From a virus (taxonomy: Duplodnaviria; Heunggongvirae; Uroviricota; Caudoviricetes), in IMG/VR virus record IMGVR_UViG_2563366911_000001: a DNA stretch of 64,000 nucleotides. One strand, given 5' to 3'. The notes below the pieces were generated by a model. It was not told the DNA's origin, did not search any database, and saw nothing but the letters and a program-made list of their open reading frames with translations. The position numbers and the translations under genes were made by a program. Shown here piece after piece: positions 39,283 through 49,456 of the stretch. Within the stretch, counting starts at the first letter, position 1. Every line of letters starts with the position of its first letter.

Positions 39283-39645
39283 TCAGCTTTCGTTGACATT
39301 TAACTTCGTCTTTGCTTTCTCCACCAGCAACTTCCAGATGCCTATTTCATTAGCAGCCGCCTTGATGGCGGCATAAAAAGCATCTTGCTGATCGTAACGC
39401 TGGATCTGTTTTTTCAGTTTTGCCTCCACCAATTTAATTTCATTACGTGCTTTCTGAAGCCGCATCACCGCCCGGTTACGTCTGTTCTTGTATAGCGTGT
39501 TAATCTCTGACAATTGTTTTAATTTGCCAGCCTGACTGCGGATTATCGCCTCCCTGGCTTCTGCCGTGCGTCTCATCTGATCTCTTAAGAGTTCACCGTT
39601 TTCGATAATTCTTTCAAGGTGTTTGATGTGATCTGCAACTCTCAT
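39283..39645 (-). CDS. Coiled-coil protein
   Basis: 120 aa. Confidence 0.45.
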   Translation of the reverse strand: MRVADHIKHLERIIENGELLRDQMRRTAEAREAIIRSQAGKLKQLSEINTLYKNRRNRAVMRLQKARNEIKLVEAKLKKQIQRYDQQDAFYAAIKAAANEIGIWKLLVEKAKTKLNVNES

Positions 39646-40316
39646 ACTTCACCCTCGCTTGTATCACCAGCGTCCACCAACGACAATAAAGCCCTGGCCA
39701 TCTTATGAACCAACAGTGCATCAATAATGCCAAGCGTATGCCCCGGCTTAATGTTTAATGCCGCCTCAAGGTGACACCTTTCCAGGTCACTTTTCTCGGC
39801 TTGTTTATGATGATCTGGCGTAATAACGTCGCCCAAAACACGGCTAATTCTTTCTCGTAATTGCTGGGTGCCAGCACACTTGATCGCTGTATCGTGGAGA
39901 CGGTTAACCAGTTCGCGATAAACATGCGGCTTAATGCGGATACGTTCACCGGTGACGCCCTTTCCTGGCGCTGGCACCGAACTATCCGGAATATCCGGAT
40001 AGTTGCCAGCCTCGTAAGCTACCCGCAGCCAGTGCATGAATGTTTCAGTGGACACACAACCACAGTCCACATCGATTTTTCCGCGTTGCTGTTCCAGCCA
40101 CTGCTCAAAATTCAATCTACACGTATTACTTTCATGTTGCTCTTTTTGTCTCAAGGCCAGCACCTGTTGGGCCAGTTCCAGAACGATACCGGGTGACGCT
40201 AACCTCTCAAATTCCAATAAATAGTTTGCGTCAGGATGACAAGTAGCCTCGCCTGCAAAAAATACCAATTGCTGTAAGTATGCTGTCGTTAGAGTAGTCA
40301 TTTCTTTTTGCGCCAT
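39642..40316 (-). CDS. Hypothetical protein
   Basis: 224 aa, ATGA-coupled. Confidence 0.5.
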   Translation of the reverse strand: MAQKEMTTLTTAYLQQLVFFAGEATCHPDANYLLEFERLASPGIVLELAQQVLALRQKEQHESNTCRLNFEQWLEQQRGKIDVDCGCVSTETFMHWLRVAYEAGNYPDIPDSSVPAPGKGVTGERIRIKPHVYRELVNRLHDTAIKCAGTQQLRERISRVLGDVITPDHHKQAEKSDLERCHLEAALNIKPGHTLGIIDALLVHKMARALLSLVDAGDTSEGEV

Positions 40317-40672
40317 TTCTTTTCACATTCCTTAGTCCATTTTTCAATGTTCATTTTGGCAATATCGGTCATTCCATCACCTAAGAAATACTTTCTCCGG
40401 TATGTCTTGCACTTAAACCACACTACAACAGCCACCAGCCAGAAAATAAAAGGCCATACAGCAATACCAACGACAGCCGCGATAAAGCCCAATATCCATA
40501 AATGAAGCTCTCCAACTTCTGTTTCCGGCAATATTCTTAAAGAATTAAACAGCAGGCTGAACGAATGGTCGTATGCATTGGCAGTATAAGACATGCAATC
40601 CATATAATTAAAGTCATAGCCTGCGGCTGCCGCCCATAATGGGCGGTCAAGAAAATGTTTTAGTGTCATCAT
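40298..40672 (-). CDS. Membrane protein with basic tail
   Basis: 124 aa, two TM segments. Confidence 0.5.
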   Translation of the reverse strand: MMTLKHFLDRPLWAAAAGYDFNYMDCMSYTANAYDHSFSLLFNSLRILPETEVGELHLWILGFIAAVVGIAVWPFIFWLVAVVVWFKCKTYRRKYFLGDGMTDIAKMNIEKWTKECEKKWRKKK

Positions 40673-40678
40673 ATAAAT

Positions 40679-40972
40679 TTAAGGTTCAGACCAGTTATCT
40701 TCAATAGCAATGCTTAATCTTTGTAGCCATTCTGCTAATTTCAGCATTGCTTCTCTTTCGCTTAAACCACGAGGAAAATCATCAAGCGAAATTGTTGGCT
40801 TGAATCCACCGTAATTATCCATTTCAACTGTCAGATTTTGTTCCAGCACGGTATTTCTTACGCGGCTATTGTGCCGGAGCAAATATACTGAGCGTGATTT
40901 ATTGGTTTTGTGGTCTAGCTTATATTCGGTAAGTATCATCTGGCTTTTGCCATGACTATTACCTCTCCACAT
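40679..40972 (-). CDS. Hypothetical protein
   Basis: 97 aa from MWRGNSHG with SD gagg. Confidence 0.45.
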   Translation of the reverse strand: MWRGNSHGKSQMILTEYKLDHKTNKSRSVYLLRHNSRVRNTVLEQNLTVEMDNYGGFKPTISLDDFPRGLSEREAMLKLAEWLQRLSIAIEDNWSEP

Positions 40973-40979
40973 ACTTACC

Positions 40980-41102
40980 TCACTTAATAAAACAACTCCA
41001 TGCGTAGTTGATGATTTTTTCCCACGCAATATAAATCTGCACTCCGGCAGTAAAACCAAAGCCAACAATTGCTGAAAAAATCAAAACATTTACTTTTGAC
41101 AT
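40980..41102 (-). CDS. 40-aa membrane microprotein
   Basis: MSKVNVLIFSAIVGFGFTAGVQIYIAWEKIINYAWSCFIK; stop 7 nt before the next start. Confidence 0.35.
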   Translation of the reverse strand: MSKVNVLIFSAIVGFGFTAGVQIYIAWEKIINYAWSCFIK

Positions 41103-41150
41103 TATAAATTTTCTCTCGGTGTCGTAGGTGATAGCACCATAATTGATAAT

Positions 41151-41384
41151 TTAGTGAGTTAGCAGTTCCATTTTTTTGATGATTTCCGCATGAGCATCAT
41201 CGTTATCAACACTTAGCTCGTTTAATGCTTCTCGCACTACATCAACTTCTTCAGGCTGAAAGAAGTCGTCGCGGTAATCACCAAATAGAACCGAAACCAG
41301 CCTGCCACCAGCAACATCAAGATTGGCGCTAACAGGTGGCTCTTTGCCATCCTCAAATTCGACTACAAAAGTTATTTTTCCCAT
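41151..41384 (-). CDS. Small acidic protein
   Basis: 77 aa from MGKITFVV. Confidence 0.45.
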   Translation of the reverse strand: MGKITFVVEFEDGKEPPVSANLDVAGGRLVSVLFGDYRDDFFQPEEVDVVREALNELSVDNDDAHAEIIKKMELLTH

Positions 41385-41386
41385 CG

Positions 41387-41470
41387 TTACCACCAGCGAC
41401 AAATTGAATACAAACCCAGTGCTGCCGCCATCACAATTCCTACCGTGGTGAATGCTTCAGGCCAGCTCAT
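41387..41470 (-). CDS. 27-aa membrane microprotein
   Basis: MSWPEAFTTVGIVMAAALGLYSICRWW; ATGA overlap with the upstream stop. Confidence 0.35.
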   Translation of the reverse strand: MSWPEAFTTVGIVMAAALGLYSICRWW

Positions 41471-42183
41471 TGATTCACCTCCTGCGGCGGTTCTGGTAGC
41501 GGCATCCAGTGTGACGGTTTCCACGACGCACCAGGAATTATCCACCCATCATTAGCGTCAGGATGCCCGGGGATGTAAGTAGCCCATTTCATTCGCCAGT
41601 CACCTTTCCTGTCAAACTCCACGGCAACAAGAACGGCTGTTTTGGTATTCGGCATTCGCTCACTACAGCTTATCCAACCATCCGGAGTTGCCGGAGAGTT
41701 GCCCGATAGCTGGTTCAACTTGTAAGTTTGGCTTACAGGTTCGGCACCATGAAGCATGGCGTCGCTCCGCTCTATGCCATCCAGCGCGATTCGCAGTGCC
41801 TGAATTGTGGTAGAGCTATCGTTTGGGGCTATTCCATATCGCTCGAATACAGCTAAATGGTTGCGCATAATCTCAGGCGTAAGCTCTTTGTAAGCATAAG
41901 CAAGAGGCTCTGATGCATTATCCGGCACAACCGACGCAGGCGCGGCAGCATAAACAGGAATAACGTCCGCTTGCTCTTTATTGCTTTCATCCGTTAAAGA
42001 CCAGAATAATTTCCCGGCCGGATGTTTGAAAATATAAGCAACTGGATCTGCTTCCAGCGATGCCAGCGCAATTCGTGCCAGTTCTTCCGCTTCTTCTGCT
42101 GGCAGTACAACGTTGCTACCAGGTCCGTATGTTTCGCGCCACTGCTTGATTGTCAGTAGTCGCTCTTTGGTAATAGTGATCAT
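41467..42183 (-). CDS. DUF551-type prophage protein
   Basis: C-terminal ...SHWMPLPEPP; N-terminus paralogous to 43058-43420. Confidence 0.55.
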   Translation of the reverse strand: MITITKERLLTIKQWRETYGPGSNVVLPAEEAEELARIALASLEADPVAYIFKHPAGKLFWSLTDESNKEQADVIPVYAAAPASVVPDNASEPLAYAYKELTPEIMRNHLAVFERYGIAPNDSSTTIQALRIALDGIERSDAMLHGAEPVSQTYKLNQLSGNSPATPDGWISCSERMPNTKTAVLVAVEFDRKGDWRMKWATYIPGHPDANDGWIIPGASWKPSHWMPLPEPPQEVNQ

Positions 42184-42698
42184 GCCGCGTTTCCTTCTTT
42201 CTTATTAACAATTACACCGTCATATATTTCATTAAGGTGCCCTCTCAACTCCATGCGCCTTAATGCAGATAACATGTAATCGCATTCAACCTGCTTATTC
42301 CCAATAAAAGGTTTATCTTCAGGGTTACCCCAACAGCAATTCCCCTTGGGCCATCCATGTACTTTCCGTACTCTTCCGTTAACAACGTGAAGTAATCCCC
42401 AGCCGGGAGGTAAATCCTCAACTGAAATAATTCCCGGCTCACTAATAAAGAATCGCCAGTCGCCCATTCCAAGAGACGGATTTTTACGAAAACGCTTTTT
42501 TCTATCTGCCAACAAGTCAGCACGAGAACACTTCGCCTCTATCAGGCATGATGCTGAATTTCTGAATCCCATAGCATCTGGCTGTTCTCCGGTACTGGTT
42601 ACAGCTATAAAGCGGTCATGAAAACAAACCTTGAACCCGTTGCGCTTAAGGAACTTATACGCAATCTGACAGAGTTCGCGGTGTGTTAACGCCATATC
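42180..42698 (-). CDS. PD-(D/E)xK / VRR-NUC-like nuclease
   Basis: QPDAMGF...LIEAKCSRAD; start at MALTH with SD aaggag. Confidence 0.5.
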   Translation of the reverse strand, partial: DMALTHRELCQIAYKFLKRNGFKVCFHDRFIAVTSTGEQPDAMGFRNSASCLIEAKCSRADLLADRKKRFRKNPSLGMGDWRFFISEPGIISVEDLPPGWGLLHVVNGRVRKVHGWPKGNCCWGNPEDKPFIGNKQVECDYMLSALRRMELRGHLNEIYDGVIVNKKEGNAA

Positions 42699-42881
42699 AC
42701 TCTCCTTTAGTGCGCAAGTGGTTTTTCCAGCGGTTTTGCGCCGCACTGGGCTTTTTGCAACAACTGTGACCCATCACCCCGCAACACCCCGCCAACCTCA
42801 CTCGTCTGTTACTAATCCTCAACCAGCGCCAGATCCCAACACCGTTTCTGCGAGCTAACAGAATCTTTGCCTTACGGTTTT

Positions 42882-43058
42882 TCATCGCTTTGCTCTCCTG
42901 CGTCTCTTTGCTGCTCGTCGTGCCGCTGCAATACCGGTATGGCGGCGCTTTGGTGCCGGGATGATGTTGTCAGCCATCAGGACATGTGGCTTTGCAATTA
43001 GCGCAGAAGCCCAAAAACGAGTCGGGTACGGTAACAAGCCGAAAAATGCCACACGCAT
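42882..43058 (-). CDS. 58-aa hydrophobic-N, Arg-rich-C microprotein
   Basis: SD ggaggtgag; TAATG overlap with the upstream stop; not in the ORF track. Confidence 0.4.
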   Translation of the reverse strand: MRVAFFGLLPYPTRFWASALIAKPHVLMADNIIPAPKRRHTGIAAARRAAKRRRRAKR

Positions 43059-43420
43059 TACTCACCTCCCTTACCCTGAAGCATGGCAGCGCGGCAGGCG
43101 TTCCAGCCATCAACATAATCAAACGTATTGCTATCGTCTGGCTCGATTTCATCCGGCACTACCGGCTCTGGTTGGATAGTGACGTTGGCAAAGGCAGCAC
43201 GCAAACCGGCCTTAATTTCCTCTACTTCATCAGCGCCTAGCGATGAATCTGACAATGCGTGATGGAATGCGTAAGCCATGTCGTCGTTTACTGCAACCGG
43301 TTCGGCTTCCAGTGATGCCAGCGCAATTCGTGCCAGTTCCATTTGTTCGCCACGGGTAAGCCCGTTATCAAGCGGATTTTTAATGAATAATTCGATACGT
43401 TCTTTGGTAATAGTGGTCAT
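43058..43420 (-). CDS. Small acidic prophage protein
   Basis: 120 aa, paralog of the N-terminus of 41467-42183. Confidence 0.5.
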   Translation of the reverse strand: MTTITKERIELFIKNPLDNGLTRGEQMELARIALASLEAEPVAVNDDMAYAFHHALSDSSLGADEVEEIKAGLRAAFANVTIQPEPVVPDEIEPDDSNTFDYVDGWNACRAAMLQGKGGE

Positions 43421-43626
43421 TTGTTAATCCTCAAAACTTTATGCCCGGGCGCAAAAGCACGTGTTTTGTCTTTACTTATTCGCCACCCGTCTTTACGGGC
43501 CTCTTTTGCACAACCAGACCATGACGTACCGATATACTCACCGAAGTCTGGCACTGGATATACACCTTCCGTACACTGGCGGCAGTCACAATAGAGATGC
43601 ATGGTGTAACTTGCAGCGATAGCCAT
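43417..43626 (-). CDS. Small Cys-rich protein
   Basis: 69 aa from MAIAASY; C..C..C. Confidence 0.45.
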   Translation of the reverse strand: MAIAASYTMHLYCDCRQCTEGVYPVPDFGEYIGTSWSGCAKEARKDGWRISKDKTRAFAPGHKVLRINK

Positions 43627-43627
43627 A

Positions 43628-44260
43628 TCACTCTCCTTTGATGCGAATGCCAGGGGCGCGTGGCACATTAACTTCCACGATGCGCACAGTTGGTTTGTAC
43701 ATCTCAATCGCAGTCAGCCAGTCAGCGCCAGTCATGCGCTTTTCTGCATCGCCATTAGTCCACTTAACCGGTACACCAATAGCCTTCATCGCGATTTCTA
43801 TTTCCCCGGCAATGGCGCTTTTTCCGCAACCAGTAAAACCAGATACAACGACCAGAACTTCACCTTTGGCTGGTTTTATTTCCCGCTCCTCCAGTTCAGC
43901 AATGCGCTTACTCCCATCCGAGATAACACCTTCGTAATACTCACGCTGCTCGTTGAGTTTTGATTTTGTCTCCTCAAGCTCAACTCTCAGCTTCCCAACC
44001 GTAAGCGCAATATCCTCGTTCTCCTGGTCGCGGGATTTGATGTATTGCTGGTTCCTTTCCCGTTCATCCAGTAGTGCCAGCACGGTTTCTGGTCCGGCCA
44101 GAAATTTGAAGGCGTTGAGCGCATCAATATCCACACCGTAATCTTTAAGTTCCTGTTCACTTAACAAATCATCATCAGCTGGCAACATTAACAGGCGTTC
44201 CATTGCTGGAATTGCACGTTCCGCCACCTCACGCAGTGCCTGGTAATTAATTTCGCTCAC
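43628..44260 (-). CDS. Ead/Ea22-like protein (copy 1)
   Basis: MSEINYQALREVAERA...; coiled-coil middle. Confidence 0.55.
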   Translation of the reverse strand: MSEINYQALREVAERAIPAMERLLMLPADDDLLSEQELKDYGVDIDALNAFKFLAGPETVLALLDERERNQQYIKSRDQENEDIALTVGKLRVELEETKSKLNEQREYYEGVISDGSKRIAELEEREIKPAKGEVLVVVSGFTGCGKSAIAGEIEIAMKAIGVPVKWTNGDAEKRMTGADWLTAIEMYKPTVRIVEVNVPRAPGIRIKGE

Positions 44261-44970
44261 TGGTTGCCTCCTTTGCGAAGCTGGGCAGCAAAGTCAACTA
44301 ACCACTCAGTCATTTCAACCTTCCCTACCAGGTCTGAACCAGGGTGCATACAGCAATCACTCTGCGCCGCTTTGAAATCCTTACACTCATATTCTTGGGC
44401 CACCAGATTTTTTGCAGCTTCTATAGCAGCATCCACCCCCTGCGCCCGCACTTCAGACAGGAAAGCATCGGTGGCTGGAATTTGCGGCATCCCTCCGTCT
44501 GTTGCGCAGATATACGCATCAGATATTTCATCCTGCCGGCCATCAAACACGTAGCAACAGCCCCTGATAAACAGCTTCATGGAGGCATTCTCCACTGCCA
44601 GCGCCGTGCGATTACCCTCCAGCTCTGCAATGCGCTGTTTTGCGGCATCCAGTTCAATCGACAATTTTTCCAACTGCTCTTGATGCTTCTTGTATTCCTG
44701 ATATGCGTGCCAAGACTGACCTTTGCGCACACTATTAGTGATATCAGTAATCTGTTCTGGTGTTAGCGTGGTCAGTGGCTGTGATGGGAAAATAAGCACT
44801 TTCCCGGAATCCCAATCAAAACCAGCGTGAATTGACTGAACCTCAACTGAAGGTGTTGAACCAATGCTGCCAGGCGAATGAACAACGATTGTTACATCCA
44901 TATCGCGACGATGGCTGTGGTTGTTGGACAAAATACGATTCACCAACTCAGAAAATTTGGAAAATTTCAT
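44257..44970 (-). CDS. Ead/Ea22-like protein (copy 2)
   Basis: Shares ...IPATDAFL(S/A)E(V/I)RA... with copy 3. Confidence 0.55.
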   Translation of the reverse strand: MKFSKFSELVNRILSNNHSHRRDMDVTIVVHSPGSIGSTPSVEVQSIHAGFDWDSGKVLIFPSQPLTTLTPEQITDITNSVRKGQSWHAYQEYKKHQEQLEKLSIELDAAKQRIAELEGNRTALAVENASMKLFIRGCCYVFDGRQDEISDAYICATDGGMPQIPATDAFLSEVRAQGVDAAIEAAKNLVAQEYECKDFKAAQSDCCMHPGSDLVGKVEMTEWLVDFAAQLRKGGNQ

Positions 44971-45290
44971 GCTGATTCCCCTTTCTCTGCTCTCTCCTGT
45001 CGGAACATCACTATCATCAGGTCGCCTTTTGTCGCTATCCTGGCTGTTGTACCTGGTTCAATGCGGCTAAGCTCAAATGCGTCATAGAACGCTTCTAATG
45101 CCTTCTGGCGTAGTTCCTGTTTGCGCCGTTTTTTCCACTGTTTTAGGAAAATGGAACCCAGCCATCGCCATGTGCGGGACATGATGTAAAGCCAACCGAG
45201 AAGTGCCAGACCGGTATTTAGGAGCGTATCGATCGTTATTGTCGTGTCGATATTCACTGGCTGCTTCCTTTGCGAATCTGTTCCGCCCAT
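44967..45290 (-). CDS. Small membrane/basic protein
   Basis: 107 aa as drawn; true start may be MSRTWRW. Confidence 0.4.
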   Translation of the reverse strand: MGGTDSQRKQPVNIDTTITIDTLLNTGLALLGWLYIMSRTWRWLGSIFLKQWKKRRKQELRQKALEAFYDAFELSRIEPGTTARIATKGDLMIVMFRQERAEKGESA

Positions 45291-45961
45291 TCTTCAAGGG
45301 ATTTCTCCGCATATTCACCAGACAGGCCATCAATCGGATGCGCTTCATTAGCCAACTCTTCTTTCGCTGACAAAATCATGCGTGTAACGTCGAAAACTTC
45401 ACGCAAAGACTTATTGATAAATCCGTGATTGAACGCAGCAGCAAGACGGCTGGCGGTATAGTTAATCCCCTCGTTGCGTGCTTCCGCACGAATTTCAGCC
45501 AGAAAAGCATCGGTAGCTGGAGTTTCGCTGTGGTGTAGGGCATCGTTGATAATCATTGCAGCAACACCAGCCTGCCCTGCATCCGTGACCGACACATGCT
45601 CAAGAGTTACGGCCATTGCGTGTTTCAGCCCGGCGTTCTCTGCCACCAGCGCAGCGAGATTAGTCTCAAGCTCTGAAATTCGGCACGTGGCATCAATATT
45701 TGTGTCCTCCAAGCACTTAATTTCACCAAGCAGCTCCAGTGCAACCTTTGGGTTGAACGCGGCAACATGACGAGCGTTGTTCTCTGCATTTTTCTGTCCA
45801 TCAAAGCCGGTCCATTTGATAACGTCTTCACATCGTTCATCACCGGGCGTGTGCACCGCATAAGTACCAGTATCCGTCGAAATAAATGCGACCCATTCGT
45901 CTGGTGTTGCCTTTTCTGCCGCCTCACGCAGTACCTGATAGTCAATTGTCATTCTCGCCAT
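45254..45961 (-). CDS. Ead/Ea22-like protein (copy 3)
   Basis: MARMTIDYQVLREAAEKATP... Confidence 0.55.
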   Translation of the reverse strand: MARMTIDYQVLREAAEKATPDEWVAFISTDTGTYAVHTPGDERCEDVIKWTGFDGQKNAENNARHVAAFNPKVALELLGEIKCLEDTNIDATCRISELETNLAALVAENAGLKHAMAVTLEHVSVTDAGQAGVAAMIINDALHHSETPATDAFLAEIRAEARNEGINYTASRLAAAFNHGFINKSLREVFDVTRMILSAKEELANEAHPIDGLSGEYAEKSLEEWAEQIRKGSSQ

Positions 45962-46593
45962 CCTTCACAGTTGTAATCACTACAGCCTTCAAAATCATAT
46001 GGGCTGTACTGCCAGGTTATTTTTCCGCAATGCGGACAATTCCAACGCACCTTCCCGCTTCGCGACTTCTTTCTTCTGTTCTGCTCTTTCAACCAGTCAG
46101 GCATGACCAAACCTGCGCCCTGAACCATTGTTCTGCGGTTAAAGTTATTGATATTGAACGTCCGGCGCTTTGCTGCATCAGCAATGGAAAATGGCAACCA
46201 AACTATTCCTGGTTCGTTTTTGTTGGCGACGCTAAAGATGGTCGCTTTACTGAAGTCATCTGTTGGCAATCCACCGTGTTGAAGCCAGTAAACATCGTTG
46301 CCGTTCCAGCTACCTTTTTTGTAGGCCACATACGCAGTGCAATCTGACTCAATCAGGCTTTCTGTAGGGATGTACTGGCAATCAACGTGCCACACAGCCA
46401 TTGCATCCACACTATCGGCACAAACAGGCTGATCGATATCTCGCCCACAATTCCAGGCTTTTTGGGCTTCTTCCAGCGTGTAAACATGAGCGCGATCGAT
46501 ATCAGAACTGTAACCATTGCCGTTATGGCAATGGAATGAGGCGTTATTACCCACAGTTTCACGCAAGCACATCATGTAAAAACGGTTACTCAC
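45949..46593 (-). CDS. Hypothetical protein with C-terminal zinc ribbon
   Basis: 214 aa, CPHCG...C..C. Confidence 0.5.
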   Translation of the reverse strand: MSNRFYMMCLRETVGNNASFHCHNGNGYSSDIDRAHVYTLEEAQKAWNCGRDIDQPVCADSVDAMAVWHVDCQYIPTESLIESDCTAYVAYKKGSWNGNDVYWLQHGGLPTDDFSKATIFSVANKNEPGIVWLPFSIADAAKRRTFNINNFNRRTMVQGAGLVMPDWLKEQNRRKKSRSGKVRWNCPHCGKITWQYSPYDFEGCSDYNCEGWRE

Positions 46594-46870
46594 TGGTTGC
46601 CTCCGCTTCCCACGTTTTCAGACTTTCACCACAGAACGGGCAAAATGAAACTCGAATAGGCGATTTAGAAAATTCACCAGACCGCAGCATGATCAGGTCT
46701 CGTGAATGAATTAATTCATGGTTATAGATTTTGTATTTCAGCAGACCTTTTCGCGTCGTGTATTCAGCGTCATGCTCCAGGGATTGTGCCAACGCCGCGC
46801 ACGGTTCTATCTTGTTGCCATTAATTTGGCATTTTGACTCACTCACTGGTTGCCCCCTGAATACGCTCAA
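46586..46870 (-). CDS. Small zinc-finger protein
   Basis: 94 aa, C..C / CPFCG. Confidence 0.45.
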   Translation of the reverse strand: MSVFRGQPVSESKCQINGNKIEPCAALAQSLEHDAEYTTRKGLLKYKIYNHELIHSRDLIMLRSGEFSKSPIRVSFCPFCGESLKTWEAEATSE

Positions 46871-47420
46871 ACTCGATTACCCACACCCAGGGATTAGCGT
46901 TCCAACTATCTTCGCCATAAATTGATTTCCATAGGCTACGGAAACCTGGGTAATGCTTATCGCCAATGAGGGTCGATTCTGTTGGTGCGCCCTCAGTCCT
47001 TGCATCGCATTCGCTGATATCGTTCAACCGCTCAACGCGCACGTTGGTAATTTCCAGAAGAATGCGCGATGCCCAGCGCGGCATGTGAATTGATGGCGTC
47101 CACTTTTCTGATACTGGTTTATTACAAACCTCGACCGGAACCCGGTGCGTTTGTTCTGTCCAGGAGTTACGCACACTTGCGCGATAAACCAGCGTTGCGA
47201 CGTCCGTCGCTTTGCCATGTACCCGGTAGGTTTCGCGAACCCAAATACGATCGCCCGGTTGACCATATGGACAATGCTTGGCAAGCAACTCTGCGGCCAC
47301 TGCCCGTCCATAGAATTTTTCTTCAACAATCCTGCGAGTCTGTGTTTTATTCCCGCCAAGAATTGCCCGGACCATCTCATCGTTAAAAATCATGCCGCGC
47401 TCTTTCACTTCGCCTTTCAT
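46839..47420 (-). CDS. ASCH/PUA-like domain protein
   Basis: N-terminus MIFNDEMVRAILGGNKTQTRR. Confidence 0.45.
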   Translation of the reverse strand: MKGEVKERGMIFNDEMVRAILGGNKTQTRRIVEEKFYGRAVAAELLAKHCPYGQPGDRIWVRETYRVHGKATDVATLVYRASVRNSWTEQTHRVPVEVCNKPVSEKWTPSIHMPRWASRILLEITNVRVERLNDISECDARTEGAPTESTLIGDKHYPGFRSLWKSIYGEDSWNANPWVWVIEFERIQGATSE

Positions 47421-47429
47421 GCATCCCCC

Positions 47430-47516
47430 TTACCCATGTGCGACGATGCCGCCAAAAGTGATAGAGAACAGCCAGAAATAGATCGCGGCCATAATGATTT
47501 TGAATGCCGTGTTCAT
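47430..47516 (-). CDS. 28-aa membrane microprotein
   Basis: MNTAFKIIMAAIYFWLFSITFGGIVAHG; SD aggag; stop 9 nt before the next start. Confidence 0.35.
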   Translation of the reverse strand: MNTAFKIIMAAIYFWLFSITFGGIVAHG

Positions 47517-47598
47517 ATTTTCAGCTCCTGTGATTGATTGGATACATGCCGCGCCTTGCGGCATGTTTTTATTTTCACTTTCTCTGTTTTAAAAATCA

Positions 47599-47615
47599 AG
47601 ATTTATTAGAGCAAT
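47599..47615. promoter_or_regulatory. C1 operator (1 mismatch)
   Basis: agatttattagagcaat. Confidence 0.8.
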
Positions 47616-48121
47616 TATTGTTGATGAAGAAGCGCGTTTTCATACTCCCTGACCATTAACGTAAGTACGCCGTGACTCCTGAAAATACGCGCCACTTCAA
47701 TCTTATCTTCCAGCGCGAACGCGATTTTACTTAGACCAATTTTCTTAAGGAGATCAATCTTTGCTGGGCCGTCATTTCTGTCATCGGTGGCAGGACGCAT
47801 AGATAGCAAAGGCTCAGCCCCGTTTGTTACGTACTTCCGCAGCCAGGCTCGTGTTTTATCCCTTGCGATCTCACAGCGCCCAGTTACAAACCAGACCGTG
47901 TAAACGTTAAATAACTGGCGCACCATATCAATAACTGGAGTGATGGGTGTATCGGTGTCACAGGCGAGATTAAACTCGTTCCAGTCCTTTGTTAATGCAC
48001 CTTTACCTGGTGGCGGAAGCAAATGCAGTCTGTCTTCAGTTGCCTCTGATATTGTTCCATCAATATCGACTATGACGATATACGGACGTTCCTGGCGTGC
48101 GTGTTTATTGAAAATACTCAA
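47615..48121 (-). CDS. HAD-superfamily phosphatase (Pnk 3'-phosphatase-like)
   Basis: Motif I VDIDGT near the N-terminus; 168 aa. Confidence 0.6.
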   Translation of the reverse strand: MSIFNKHARQERPYIVIVDIDGTISEATEDRLHLLPPPGKGALTKDWNEFNLACDTDTPITPVIDMVRQLFNVYTVWFVTGRCEIARDKTRAWLRKYVTNGAEPLLSMRPATDDRNDGPAKIDLLKKIGLSKIAFALEDKIEVARIFRSHGVLTLMVREYENALLHQQ

Positions 48122-48193
48122 ATGCCCTCCTCATTGGACGAAAAAAATGCTGGTGGGCGCACTCCACCAGCATTAAAAGTGACACTGTAACTA

Positions 48194-49456
48194 TCAGCGG
48201 ACGTAAATAGTGCCGCCGTTCTCTTTTTCCCATGCATCGCTACGTGCATAGCAAACATCGAGAAGTCTTCTTGCCGCTGTTTCCTCTAAACCCAATTCGA
48301 CAACCAACTGCTCATGACGGCGGGTAACCACATCAAACAGGGTATGCAGCCCTTTAGCTGCCAGATCATCAATAAATTCCGGTTCGAACGGCAGCTCTGC
48401 CTCTGCCAACATAACCTCTTGCGCCCACTCAACTCGACGGACTAGTTCCGGGCGGCGGCTTTCCATCTCTTTACAGATCAATTCATGGAAGAACTCTACC
48501 CAACCTTCCGGCTGGAACTCGCGGAAAATGGCCAACGGCTGGAAGTTTGGCATCAACCATTCGTTGATCCGGATATCAATGGCATAGCCCATGTCGCAGC
48601 AGAACTGATAAGCAAAGTCCAGCTTAGAAACGATATAAGGACGCTCGTTATTGAACTCTTTAGGCGATGAGATCCCATAAGCCAGGAGGCGCGGGAAGAA
48701 GGAGATTTGCCCTAACGTCGGATGAAGTTTGCTTGCAGGGAAACGGCGCTCAGTAATGCCATACATTTCCTTCTTGAGCGTCGCAAATTTGGCATTCTCA
48801 TTAACCAGCGCGGTAACCTCTGCTTTTTTATTAGCAAATGCCACGCGCGCTTCGCTTGCATCTTTAATAGTTTTTTTGAGCTGTTGGTTAAGGTCGGCGA
48901 CCTGCTTACGCAGTTCCTGTCGCTCGCTTTTAGCTTTGTTATAGCGTTTCTCAAGGTTAAAAGGATCAAGTTTCATGATCTCTTTATATTGAGATTTTAG
49001 CGTTGAAATCTGTGAGTTCCGCAGTTCAACCATCGCGGTCATTTCATTGAGTTTTGTTTCCAGCTCAATGCTTATACGTTCGGCATTATCAGCACGCTGG
49101 TTGGCGTCATGTGTCGCATCGTCGATCGCGTCCTGTTGCTGGCGTTTCAAATGTTCAATTTGCAGCTGAAGCTCTTCAATTTCTTTACCCTTCAGACCGA
49201 GATCCAACTGCATATTTTCAGCTGCATCTACCAGGGAGTTATGGCTATCAGCTTCTGCGTTATAAACATCAATAAGCTGTGCGTGAAGCATCTCCGCTGA
49301 CTGAACCGCATTATCAAAAAAACGTGCTGTGAGGTCATCACAACTAACGCGGCGTTGCGCGGCCCGGATGTTCTGGATAATGGCCGGGATACCGGCATTC
49401 AGGACGTCAGGGATAGATACATTTTCGATTGATTGGTTTTGTGCTGAAGTGCTCAT
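48194..49456 (-). CDS. Coiled-coil protein with a C-terminal globular domain
   Basis: 420 aa, long heptad-rich middle. Confidence 0.5.
   Translation of the reverse strand: MSTSAQNQSIENVSIPDVLNAGIPAIIQNIRAAQRRVSCDDLTARFFDNAVQSAEMLHAQLIDVYNAEADSHNSLVDAAENMQLDLGLKGKEIEELQLQIEHLKRQQQDAIDDATHDANQRADNAERISIELETKLNEMTAMVELRNSQISTLKSQYKEIMKLDPFNLEKRYNKAKSERQELRKQVADLNQQLKKTIKDASEARVAFANKKAEVTALVNENAKFATLKKEMYGITERRFPASKLHPTLGQISFFPRLLAYGISSPKEFNNERPYIVSKLDFAYQFCCDMGYAIDIRINEWLMPNFQPLAIFREFQPEGWVEFFHELICKEMESRRPELVRRVEWAQEVMLAEAELPFEPEFIDDLAAKGLHTLFDVVTRRHEQLVVELGLEETAARRLLDVCYARSDAWEKENGGTIYVR

Follow-up and report, generated by a model that had tools for sequence, protein, structure and literature searches.

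The question raised by this locus is whether four very short open reading frames (ORFs), lying between the larger genes of a phage operon, are themselves genes. They are found in virus record IMGVR_UViG_2563366911_000001, of which a stretch of 64,000 nucleotides (nt), referred to here as the window, was analysed. A sequence-only reading of the window had described four translationally coupled microproteins of 40, 27, 58 and 28 amino acids (aa), here called ORF1 to ORF4. As judged from its sequence, the window is a P1/P7-like phage-plasmid, and all four ORFs lie on its minus strand in a compact accessory operon downstream of pmgS-pap. In our view three of the four, together with a fifth small ORF of 62 residues (ORF62), are genuine small genes, and ORF1 falls outside this set. 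ORF2, ORF3 and ORF4 are considered real because they are conserved in relatives and not because they are tightly coupled to their neighbours. The coordinates of all features are given in Table 1.

ORF4 and the Op88 unit

Comparison with related elements indicates that ORF4 is a real, conserved gene. In the P1 reference record the C1 repressor operator Op88 and the predicted promoters P2pmgT and P1pmgT directly follow pap, and the copy in the window is unchanged at 47615-47571. With 47571 as the last base of the P1pmgT -10 element, transcription should begin around the stem-loop at 47566-47544. In the predicted fold this 9-bp stem-loop is followed by unpaired CAAUCAAUCACAGGAGC and then by the AUG of ORF4, the fold as a whole being marginally better than those of shuffled sequences (z = -1.64). 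The three hairpins were out of register in a MAFFT alignment of the leaders, and each leader was folded separately. Equivalent stems, differing in sequence and kept in position, are present in Cronobacter phage JK004 (GGCCGC/GCGGCC) and in two Salmonella plasmids (AGGCCAC/GTGGCCT). The box containing the Shine-Dalgarno (SD) site and its spacing to the ATG are also retained in JK004 and the Salmonella plasmids, and the box is predicted to be single-stranded in all leaders.

An identical ORF4 protein is encoded by P1 and P7, the P1 gene differing by one synonymous nucleotide, and is annotated in neither phage. P1 serves as a reference phage and as a standard tool of genetics; its curated annotation lacks a conserved gene directly behind a mapped C1 operator. 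The frame is intact in 67 of 67 loci. A protein search with the P1 form yielded no homologue below 93% identity; divergent homologues are found at the equivalent place in JK004 (53 aa), the Pap protein of which is 72.5% identical, and in the two Salmonella plasmids (46 aa). The operator in JK004 is followed by a differing hairpin, the box CAATCAATCAC-GGAGC and then, at equal distance, MHLIFKLAITAFYAWMLTVVITSFKPDANMKASRYLGNLSASYDCDQQGDDSL, and that in the plasmids by a third hairpin sequence, the box and finally MHTVFKLAMAAFYIWIFTIVFTGIAKATPVNASEVGVRTIYCDLGE. In ORF4 and these homologues the reading frame comes directly after the C1 operator, the promoter, the hairpin and the CAATCAATCA-GGAGC box, and encodes an N-terminal helix of the form M-x-x-x-F-K-[IL]-x-x-x-A-x-Y-x-W; P1 and P7 have exactly the arrangement of the window. 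Over the first 25 codons, the identities at the first, second and third codon positions are 0.64, 0.80 and 0.40 between the window and Salmonella and 0.56, 0.88 and 0.40 between Salmonella and JK004, so that in both comparisons conservation is lowest at third positions and highest at second positions. Across the lineages the proportion of synonymous differences (pS) is about 0.8 and that of nonsynonymous differences (pN) about 0.27 (0.84 and 0.26, respectively, between the window and Salmonella), giving a pN/pS of about 0.3. The ungapped BLOSUM62 score of ORF4 against its JK004 homologue is 41, a value reached by one of 10,000 shuffles (p = 1e-4). Models that match ORF4 at a meaningful score were not found in PHROG, Pfam or NCBIfam.

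The gene that follows ORF4 is pmgT in P1, a upf86.8 homologue in P7 and in the window, and a helix-turn-helix-like gene in JK004 and Salmonella; in several plasmids only a convergent hsdR follows. Because the following gene differs between elements, the conserved unit comprises the operator, promoter, hairpin and peptide.

Several further observations concern this unit. In NZ_AP025548, NZ_AP027761, NZ_CP063477 and NZ_AP028823 the type I restriction gene hsdR converges on ORF4, and pap-Op88-ORF4 ends the rightward unit. An 84-nt piece (47426-47509, minus strand) that holds ORF4 codons 3-28 without the start occurs alone at ~99% identity in roughly 280 other plasmids, and the P1 record places this stretch downstream of hsdR in plasmid R124/3 and beside the EcoDXXI hsd locus; the piece looks like a recombination scar. 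For the JK004 homologue, JK004_94, the annotation takes an internal ATG as the start (38 aa), and use of the start conserved in P1 gives the 53-aa form (2087-2248 of the JK004 stretch examined). A 44-aa form of ORF4, annotated as a 'membrane protein' in phage SJ46, was considered and rejected. It has no SD site (-2.9 kcal/mol), its ATG (47564) is part of the hairpin stem, where the transcript is predicted to start, and in two loci it is broken by a 4-nt deletion that leaves the 28-aa frame intact.

ORF2 and the M-[ST]-W-P-E-A-F peptides

ORF2 is likewise real, and belongs to a widespread, unnamed family of phage peptides. We defined the family by an N-terminal M-[ST]-W-P-E-A-F followed by about 14-20 hydrophobic residues in a total length of 22-34 aa, a description that ORF2 fits. 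A scan of viral contigs with the back-translated motif returned 120 stretches encoding 53 distinct peptides, 37 of which are exactly 27 aa long. A Kyte-Doolittle mean above 1.5 over residues 8-21 was found for 42 of the 50 distinct peptides of 20-45 aa. The control scan, which used one genome per bacterial species, gave a hydrophobic stretch after the motif in four of 120 matches; two of these four are the family itself, and the bacterial matches are otherwise mostly due to chance. The matches in viral contigs have 54 different flanks upstream and 54 downstream. An SD-like site precedes 95 of 99 matches, and the start codon overlaps the upstream ORF as ATGA in 74 of 87 contexts, as it does in the window, where the upstream gene encodes a DUF551 protein and the SD energy is -11.6 kcal/mol. 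A gene lies directly downstream in 27 of the 87 contexts and none does in the other 60.

When 55-56 distinct alleles of 27 aa are compared, the ORF2 frame has a pN/pS of 0.29-0.40 and the other frames range over 0.97-1.56, apart from the antisense mirror frame, an expected exception; against the in-frame value of 0.29, the non-mirror frames give at least 1.2. The adjoining 77-aa gene has a pN/pS of 0.07. Two alleles in related loci differ by 28% with several insertions and deletions, and both are open, keep MSWPEAF, are hydrophobic and stop just before the next gene. Diverged members, among them MTWPEAFLGAFIVVAAVLFFGFVTDAIKINIGGR and MSWPEAFFGAVFIICVAWVYVTAIKDKDD, come from contigs of 56-66% G+C and from Achromobacter, and again overlap the upstream gene as ATGA. 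No Pfam, NCBIfam or PHROG model matched ORF2 at a meaningful score, and the family, common as it is in Shiga-toxin and other lambdoid prophages, is absent from all three collections.

The ORF2 homologues of phage 933W and of ArgO145 are unannotated. We note that the 933W homologue (1501-1578 of the stretch examined) lies just upstream (about 160 nt) of hokW/sokW. Two apparent associations were rejected. A mixed cluster in which the peptide seems fused to DUF551 proteins is a clustering artefact, since the DUF551 proteins end before the peptide. A tie between ORF2 and the 77-aa gene was likewise discarded, as an ORF2-like peptide is absent upstream of distant homologues of that gene.

ORF3 and ORF62

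ORF3 is also a real gene, the conserved part of which is its C-terminal half. It has a full-length profile match (Table 1) together with the tail [HR]-T-G-[IV]-A-A-A-R-R-A-A-K-K-R-R-R, and it also matches phrog_8108 (E = 9.1e-6), as does a divergent relative. The alignment contains 14 invariant columns, 13 of them in the tail. ORF3 is intact (51-60 aa, strong SD) in 115 of 116 loci; only the DNA of the C-terminal motif was used to retrieve these loci, and integrity of the rest of the frame was thus no selection criterion. The start alternates between TAATG and TAGTG, a single change that leaves both the upstream stop and the start functional. In the N-terminal half, one allele with 65% DNA identity over 105 nt is still in frame, with a pN/pS of 0.54. 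In a homologue whose N-terminus is unrelated, the tail T-G-I-A-A-A-R-R-A-A-K-K-R-R-R has persisted despite four synonymous codon changes and four exchanges of the K/R or A/S type, among them AAG to CGC, which takes three base changes. A profile search of 1.8 billion representative proteins gave 17 clusters, of which the 12 new ones were read. Ten of these consist of 40-61-aa proteins ending in the ORF3 tail, often with a signal-like or hydrophobic N-terminus; of the remaining two, one lacks the tail and one has the motif inside an 89-aa protein. AlphaFold predicts a helix for residues 40-57 with a predicted local distance difference test score (pLDDT) of about 85, the rest of the model being uncertain. 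The 933W homologue, which follows L0069 (901-1056 of the stretch examined), is unannotated.

ORF62 was not listed in the sequence-only reading because it is longer than the 60 aa below which that reading had looked. It is best interpreted as a genuine fifth small gene with conservation at the protein level: it is intact in 96 of 96 loci, its SD energy is -7.4 kcal/mol, and its pN/pS of 0.40 is the lowest of the six frames. ORF62 connects ORF3 to a gene of the XF1762 family, a name that was taken from the annotation of a related plasmid.

Junctions, ribosome-binding sites and chance

The four ORFs are present where they had been placed, and reading the junctions off the sequence confirms that each has its start or its stop no more than 10 nt from a neighbouring gene. 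ORF1 ends at 40980, 7 nt short of a 97-aa gene that begins with the ATG at 40972, and it starts 48 nt past the previous stop. The ATGA of ORF2 overlaps the stop of the DUF551 gene, and ORF2 terminates 2 nt ahead of the ATG at 41384. ORF3 overlaps a 120-aa gene as TAATG and ORF62 as ATGA, and ORF62 ends 1 nt before the ATG (42695) of the XF1762-family gene. The stop of ORF4 is 9 nt before the ATG at 47420.

An SD sequence had been claimed for each of the four. With SD strength taken as the duplex energy with the anti-SD sequence, ORF3 (-12.6 kcal/mol), ORF2 (-11.6 kcal/mol) and ORF4 (-6.6 kcal/mol) bear this out. ORF1 does not have an SD site, since its energy of -3.0 kcal/mol matches the background median of -2.8 kcal/mol. 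The description of three peptides as single-pass and hydrophobic, with a fourth having a hydrophobic N-terminus and an Arg-rich tail, was likewise accurate in part. ORF1, ORF2 and ORF4 each have one hydrophobic stretch of helix length, with best 19-residue Kyte-Doolittle means of 1.83, 1.85 and 2.10, respectively; a mean of at least 1.6 is reached by 11% of the small ORFs of the window. The tail of ORF3 is very basic (15 K+R), but its N-terminus scores 1.16 and contains prolines and an arginine, and so is not a clear membrane helix. The four ORFs had been missed in the sense that they lie below the 60-aa cutoff of that reading, whereas all of them have already been predicted as hypothetical proteins in some public records.

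The frequency with which such ORFs arise by chance was estimated from dinucleotide shuffles of each gap. An SD-preceded ORF of the observed size ending within 10 nt of the next start was found in 17% of shuffles of the ORF2 gap, where the ATG and SD belong to the flank that was kept fixed, and in 2.3% of those of the ORF4 gap. For the ORF1 gap no SD was required, and 1.5% of shuffles contained a frame of 40 aa or more that closes near the next start; the 362-nt gap that holds ORF3 and ORF62 was tiled by two coupled SD-preceded ORFs in 0.3%. Gap-filling ORFs are therefore not rare in shuffles, and coupling by itself (shuffle p 0.003-0.17) is a weak argument that the ORFs are real. The conclusion that it had been used to support nevertheless holds for ORF2, ORF3 and ORF4, for which conservation of the reading frames in relatives was found; ORF1 stays a candidate.

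Table 1. Positions of the small ORFs, the ORF4 leader elements and the tRNA genes in the window
Feature	Position	Strand	Description	Match
ORF1	40980..41102	-	40-aa hydrophobic ORF	phrog_5525, full length (1-40 vs profile 1-40), E = 1.1e-24
ORF2	41387..41470	-	27-aa peptide, MSWPEAF + predicted transmembrane helix, MSWPEAFTTVGIVMAAALGLYSICRWW	
ORF62	42697..42885	-	62 aa, very basic (17 K+R), Cys-rich (CC..CC)	phrog_1380, E = 7.7e-32
ORF3	42882..43058	-	58 aa, variable N-terminal half, conserved arginine-rich C-terminal helix (predicted), TGIAAARRAAKRRRRAKR	phrog_13831, E = 2.7e-39
ORF4	47430..47516	-	28-aa single-pass hydrophobic peptide, MNTAFKIIMAAIYFWLFSITFGGIVAHG; putative first cistron of Op88-controlled transcript	
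ORF4 SD, AGGAG	47524..47528	-	inside conserved box CAATCAATCAC-GGAGC; -6.6 kcal/mol	
Stem-loop	47544..47566	-	at predicted 5' end of Op88 transcript; 10 pairs by scan, 9 pairs by RNA fold; terminator-like on + strand	
P1pmgT	47599-47571	-	predicted promoter	exact match to P1 annotation (predicted there)
P2pmgT	47614-47586	-	predicted promoter	exact match to P1 annotation (predicted there)
Op88	47599..47615	-	C1 repressor operator, ATTGCTCTAATAAATCT; abuts pap stop codon	identical to P1 operator, NC_005856 84293-84309
tRNA genes (Met-type CAT anticodon, Thr, Asn)	60899-60974, 62974-63049, 63052-63127	-	expected for a P1-type genome	

Interpretation of the operon

The reading that we favour, and consider likely, is that the four ORFs are short cistrons of one long, packed, C1-controlled minus-strand operon. 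By homology with P1, the operon would be transcribed from the C1-repressed promoters beside Op88, just downstream of pap. ORF4 would be the first cistron, placed after the 5' stem-loop and the unpaired ribosome-binding site, and would encode a conserved single-pass membrane peptide of P1-like phages. The start codon of ORF2 almost always overlaps the stop codon of the preceding gene, whichever gene that is, and ORF3 is chained by overlapping stop and start codons to ORF62 and then to the next gene. Such overlaps, or directly adjacent stops and starts, are the sequence prerequisites of coupling, by which the ORFs would be translated. ORF2, ORF4 and possibly ORF1 would then be inserted in the inner membrane, the tail of ORF3 may bind nucleic acid or anionic lipid, and the peptides would probably act on the host as dispensable accessory factors once the repressor is lifted.

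A number of observations weigh against this interpretation. ORF1 has neither an SD site nor a signal of selection: its segregating sites are distributed 8/7/9 over the codon positions, its pN/pS of 0.59 is similar to that of other frames, and in 67 loci there are one frameshift, one start loss and two stop losses. In the shorter ORF2 allele ATA replaces ATG in nine loci, and the peptide can therefore be lost. Close alleles of ORF3 have a pN/pS of 0.61 that is not frame-specific, and the tail is frameshifted in a few database variants. The case for ORF4 rests on three divergent lineages; in close relatives it has 11 segregating sites, with selection values within noise, and the leader read in an arbitrary frame gives a pN/pS of 0.26 among close alleles. 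The pN/pS values are pairwise sums over alleles that are not independent and that recombine. Finally, translation of the ORFs is something that we infer, from reading frames, signals, conservation and patterns of selection that are themselves observed directly.

ORF1 is the member of the set to which these objections apply most directly. It is full length in 225 of 226 plasmid matches, with zero annotation beneath them, intact in 85 of 90 viral loci and annotated in phage SJ46. No homologue was found below about 77% identity, and none below 85% by protein search. In some P1-like phages the homology to the following gene begins at 40978, just past the ORF1 stop, and ORF1 is therefore not needed by that gene. 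ORF1 may encode a membrane peptide restricted to this lineage, or may be a frame that is open by chance in a spacer of 178 nt.

The same possibility may be raised for the whole set, which could represent chance open frames in the spacers and leaders of a compact operon, singled out since T-rich spacers read as hydrophobic. The shuffle frequencies for ORF2 and ORF4, the one in nine or so small ORFs of the window that are equally hydrophobic, the absence of an SD site and of codon-position bias in ORF1, and the persistence of the start-less ORF4 piece in other plasmids are all consistent with this. We nevertheless consider it improbable, given the frame-specific constraint on ORF2, the occurrence of its motif-plus-helix family across unrelated flanks and its absence, beyond the members already mentioned, from the genome-wide control, the preservation of the ORF3 tail through codon changes and the coding-type substitution pattern of ORF4 in three lineages. 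Another explanation is that translation of the ORFs serves only as a bridge, which hands ribosomes to the next cistron or opens its ribosome-binding site, the sequence of the peptide being irrelevant. Stops and starts overlap throughout the operon, the stop of ORF1 lies inside the SD of the next gene and, in the predicted fold, UUCUCU inside ORF4 (47463-47468) pairs with the SD of the next gene, which suggests that ORF4 translation could free this site and help translation of that gene. The fold is only weakly better than shuffles, however, and a pure bridge role misfits ORF2, which is usually last in its operon, and ORF4, which persists with its operator and promoter where the next gene has been replaced or is absent and a convergent hsdR faces it. 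Conservation at the amino-acid level in ORF2, ORF3 and ORF4 also speaks against the bridge, which we think unlikely as the whole explanation.

ORF4 has in addition the shape of a type I toxin, being a 28-aa hydrophobic peptide with a best 19-residue score of 2.10, and 28 nt beyond its start the opposite strand carries a strong terminator-like site, so that an antisense RNA ending at the + strand hairpin and T-run (47544-47576) might act as its antitoxin. A weak + strand Rfam match (GcvB, E = 0.43) points the same way. No antitoxin RNA family was matched in Rfam, however. Neither a scan nor reading of the sequence gave a sigma-70-like + strand promoter within or behind ORF4, the A-rich -10/start region of P1pmgT, read on the other strand, gives the T-run, the JK004 hairpin is kept without an adjacent opposite-strand T-run, and the gene is already silenced by C1 in lysogens. 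For these reasons a type I toxin-antitoxin pair is very improbable indeed. A more speculative extension of the favoured reading is that the ORF4 unit (operator, promoter, 5' hairpin and membrane peptide) is an autonomous, repressor-silenced mini-gene of P1-like phages the peptide of which would act alone on the host membrane after C1 is lifted, for example in exclusion, in lysis timing or by arresting growth. Retention of the unit where the following gene is swapped or missing would then be explained, but we offer this idea tentatively and think it rather doubtful.

Comparison with known systems

Bacterial single-pass small membrane proteins such as KdpF, AcrZ, MgtS and YohP have 20-50 residues and one hydrophobic helix and are often missed by annotation. 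ORF2, ORF4 and ORF1 share this shape. The best matches to the KdpF, PetL and CydH models are far below threshold and indicate no homology, and the KdpF-type examples are defined by their partner proteins. The hok/mok/sok system and hokW/sokW of 933W likewise combine a small hydrophobic peptide with reliance on an overlapping upstream reading frame; in contrast to them, the present ORFs have no antisense RNA gene and no Rfam match, and ORF2 and ORF4 are unrelated to Hok in sequence. Arginine-rich motif peptides, as in lambda N, P22 N and HIV Rev/Tat, lack a hydrophobic or signal-like N-terminus. ORF3 similarly ends in a predicted arginine-rich α-helix of about 18 residues, but it has no sequence relationship with these peptides and its relatives do have a hydrophobic or signal-like N-terminus.

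The annotated 'Upf' ORFs of P1 and P7 (UpfM, 37 aa; Upf91.3) are likewise short, lie in the same late region of the P1 map and were called from sequence alone, and they show no sequence similarity to any of the four ORFs. The PHROG families matched over their full length by ORF1 (phrog_5525), ORF3 (phrog_13831/phrog_8108) and ORF62 (phrog_1380) are labelled 'unknown function'. Searches of the small ORFs against Pfam, NCBIfam, PADLOC and PDB sequences gave nothing above threshold, PADLOC models gave zero matches at E <= 0.01 among the five small ORFs and five neighbours, and literature searches for the peptide sequences gave no match. An endolysin neighbour, as expected in a lysis cassette, was not found; the neighbours are pap, a pmgT-like gene, DUF551, Ea22-like and uncharacterised genes. 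In a P1 CRISPR interference (CRISPRi) screen, pap, pmgT, pmgU and pmgV were non-essential for lytic growth, and ORF4 was not among the targets (PMC10695390). The organization of the operon is nothing unusual for phage accessory operons and leaves the view of these unchanged; ORF4 and the ORF2 family can be added to the growing list of small phage proteins as concrete entries that are easy to test.

Genomic setting

The region 40500-48200 has 95-99% identity to Salmonella phage SJ46, P1, P7 and hundreds of ~95-kb E. coli plasmids, and the pmgS-pap-Op88 stretch is 97-99% identical to P1 and P7. Homology to P1 runs from pmgS through pap to 47329 and, after a break of ~7.3 kb, resumes at the pmgU/pmgV homologues (40017). 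The ~7.3-kb insert before these homologues consists of lambdoid-type accessory genes, parts of which are shared with lambdoid and Shiga-toxin phages. Between 39283 and 49456 every gene is on the minus strand and is separated from the next by an overlap or a gap of a few bases, which also describes each of the remaining junctions within 39283-47420.

The breakpoints of mosaic homology at 41474 (Shiga-toxin phages) and 40978 (other P1-like phages) lie a few bases from the ORF2 start and the ORF1 stop, respectively, so that both small ORFs are edged by recombination joints. The C1 operator core, ATTGCTCTAAT[AG]AAT, is matched a second time at about 63794-63810 (minus strand), near the tRNA genes. 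We also note that the gene at 43417-43707 (minus strand) starts with TTG in the mechanical ORF list (96 aa). An alternative ATG at 43626, which has an AAGGAG site, lies 1 nt past the upstream stop and gives a 69-aa protein, is a better match to the coupled layout of the operon.

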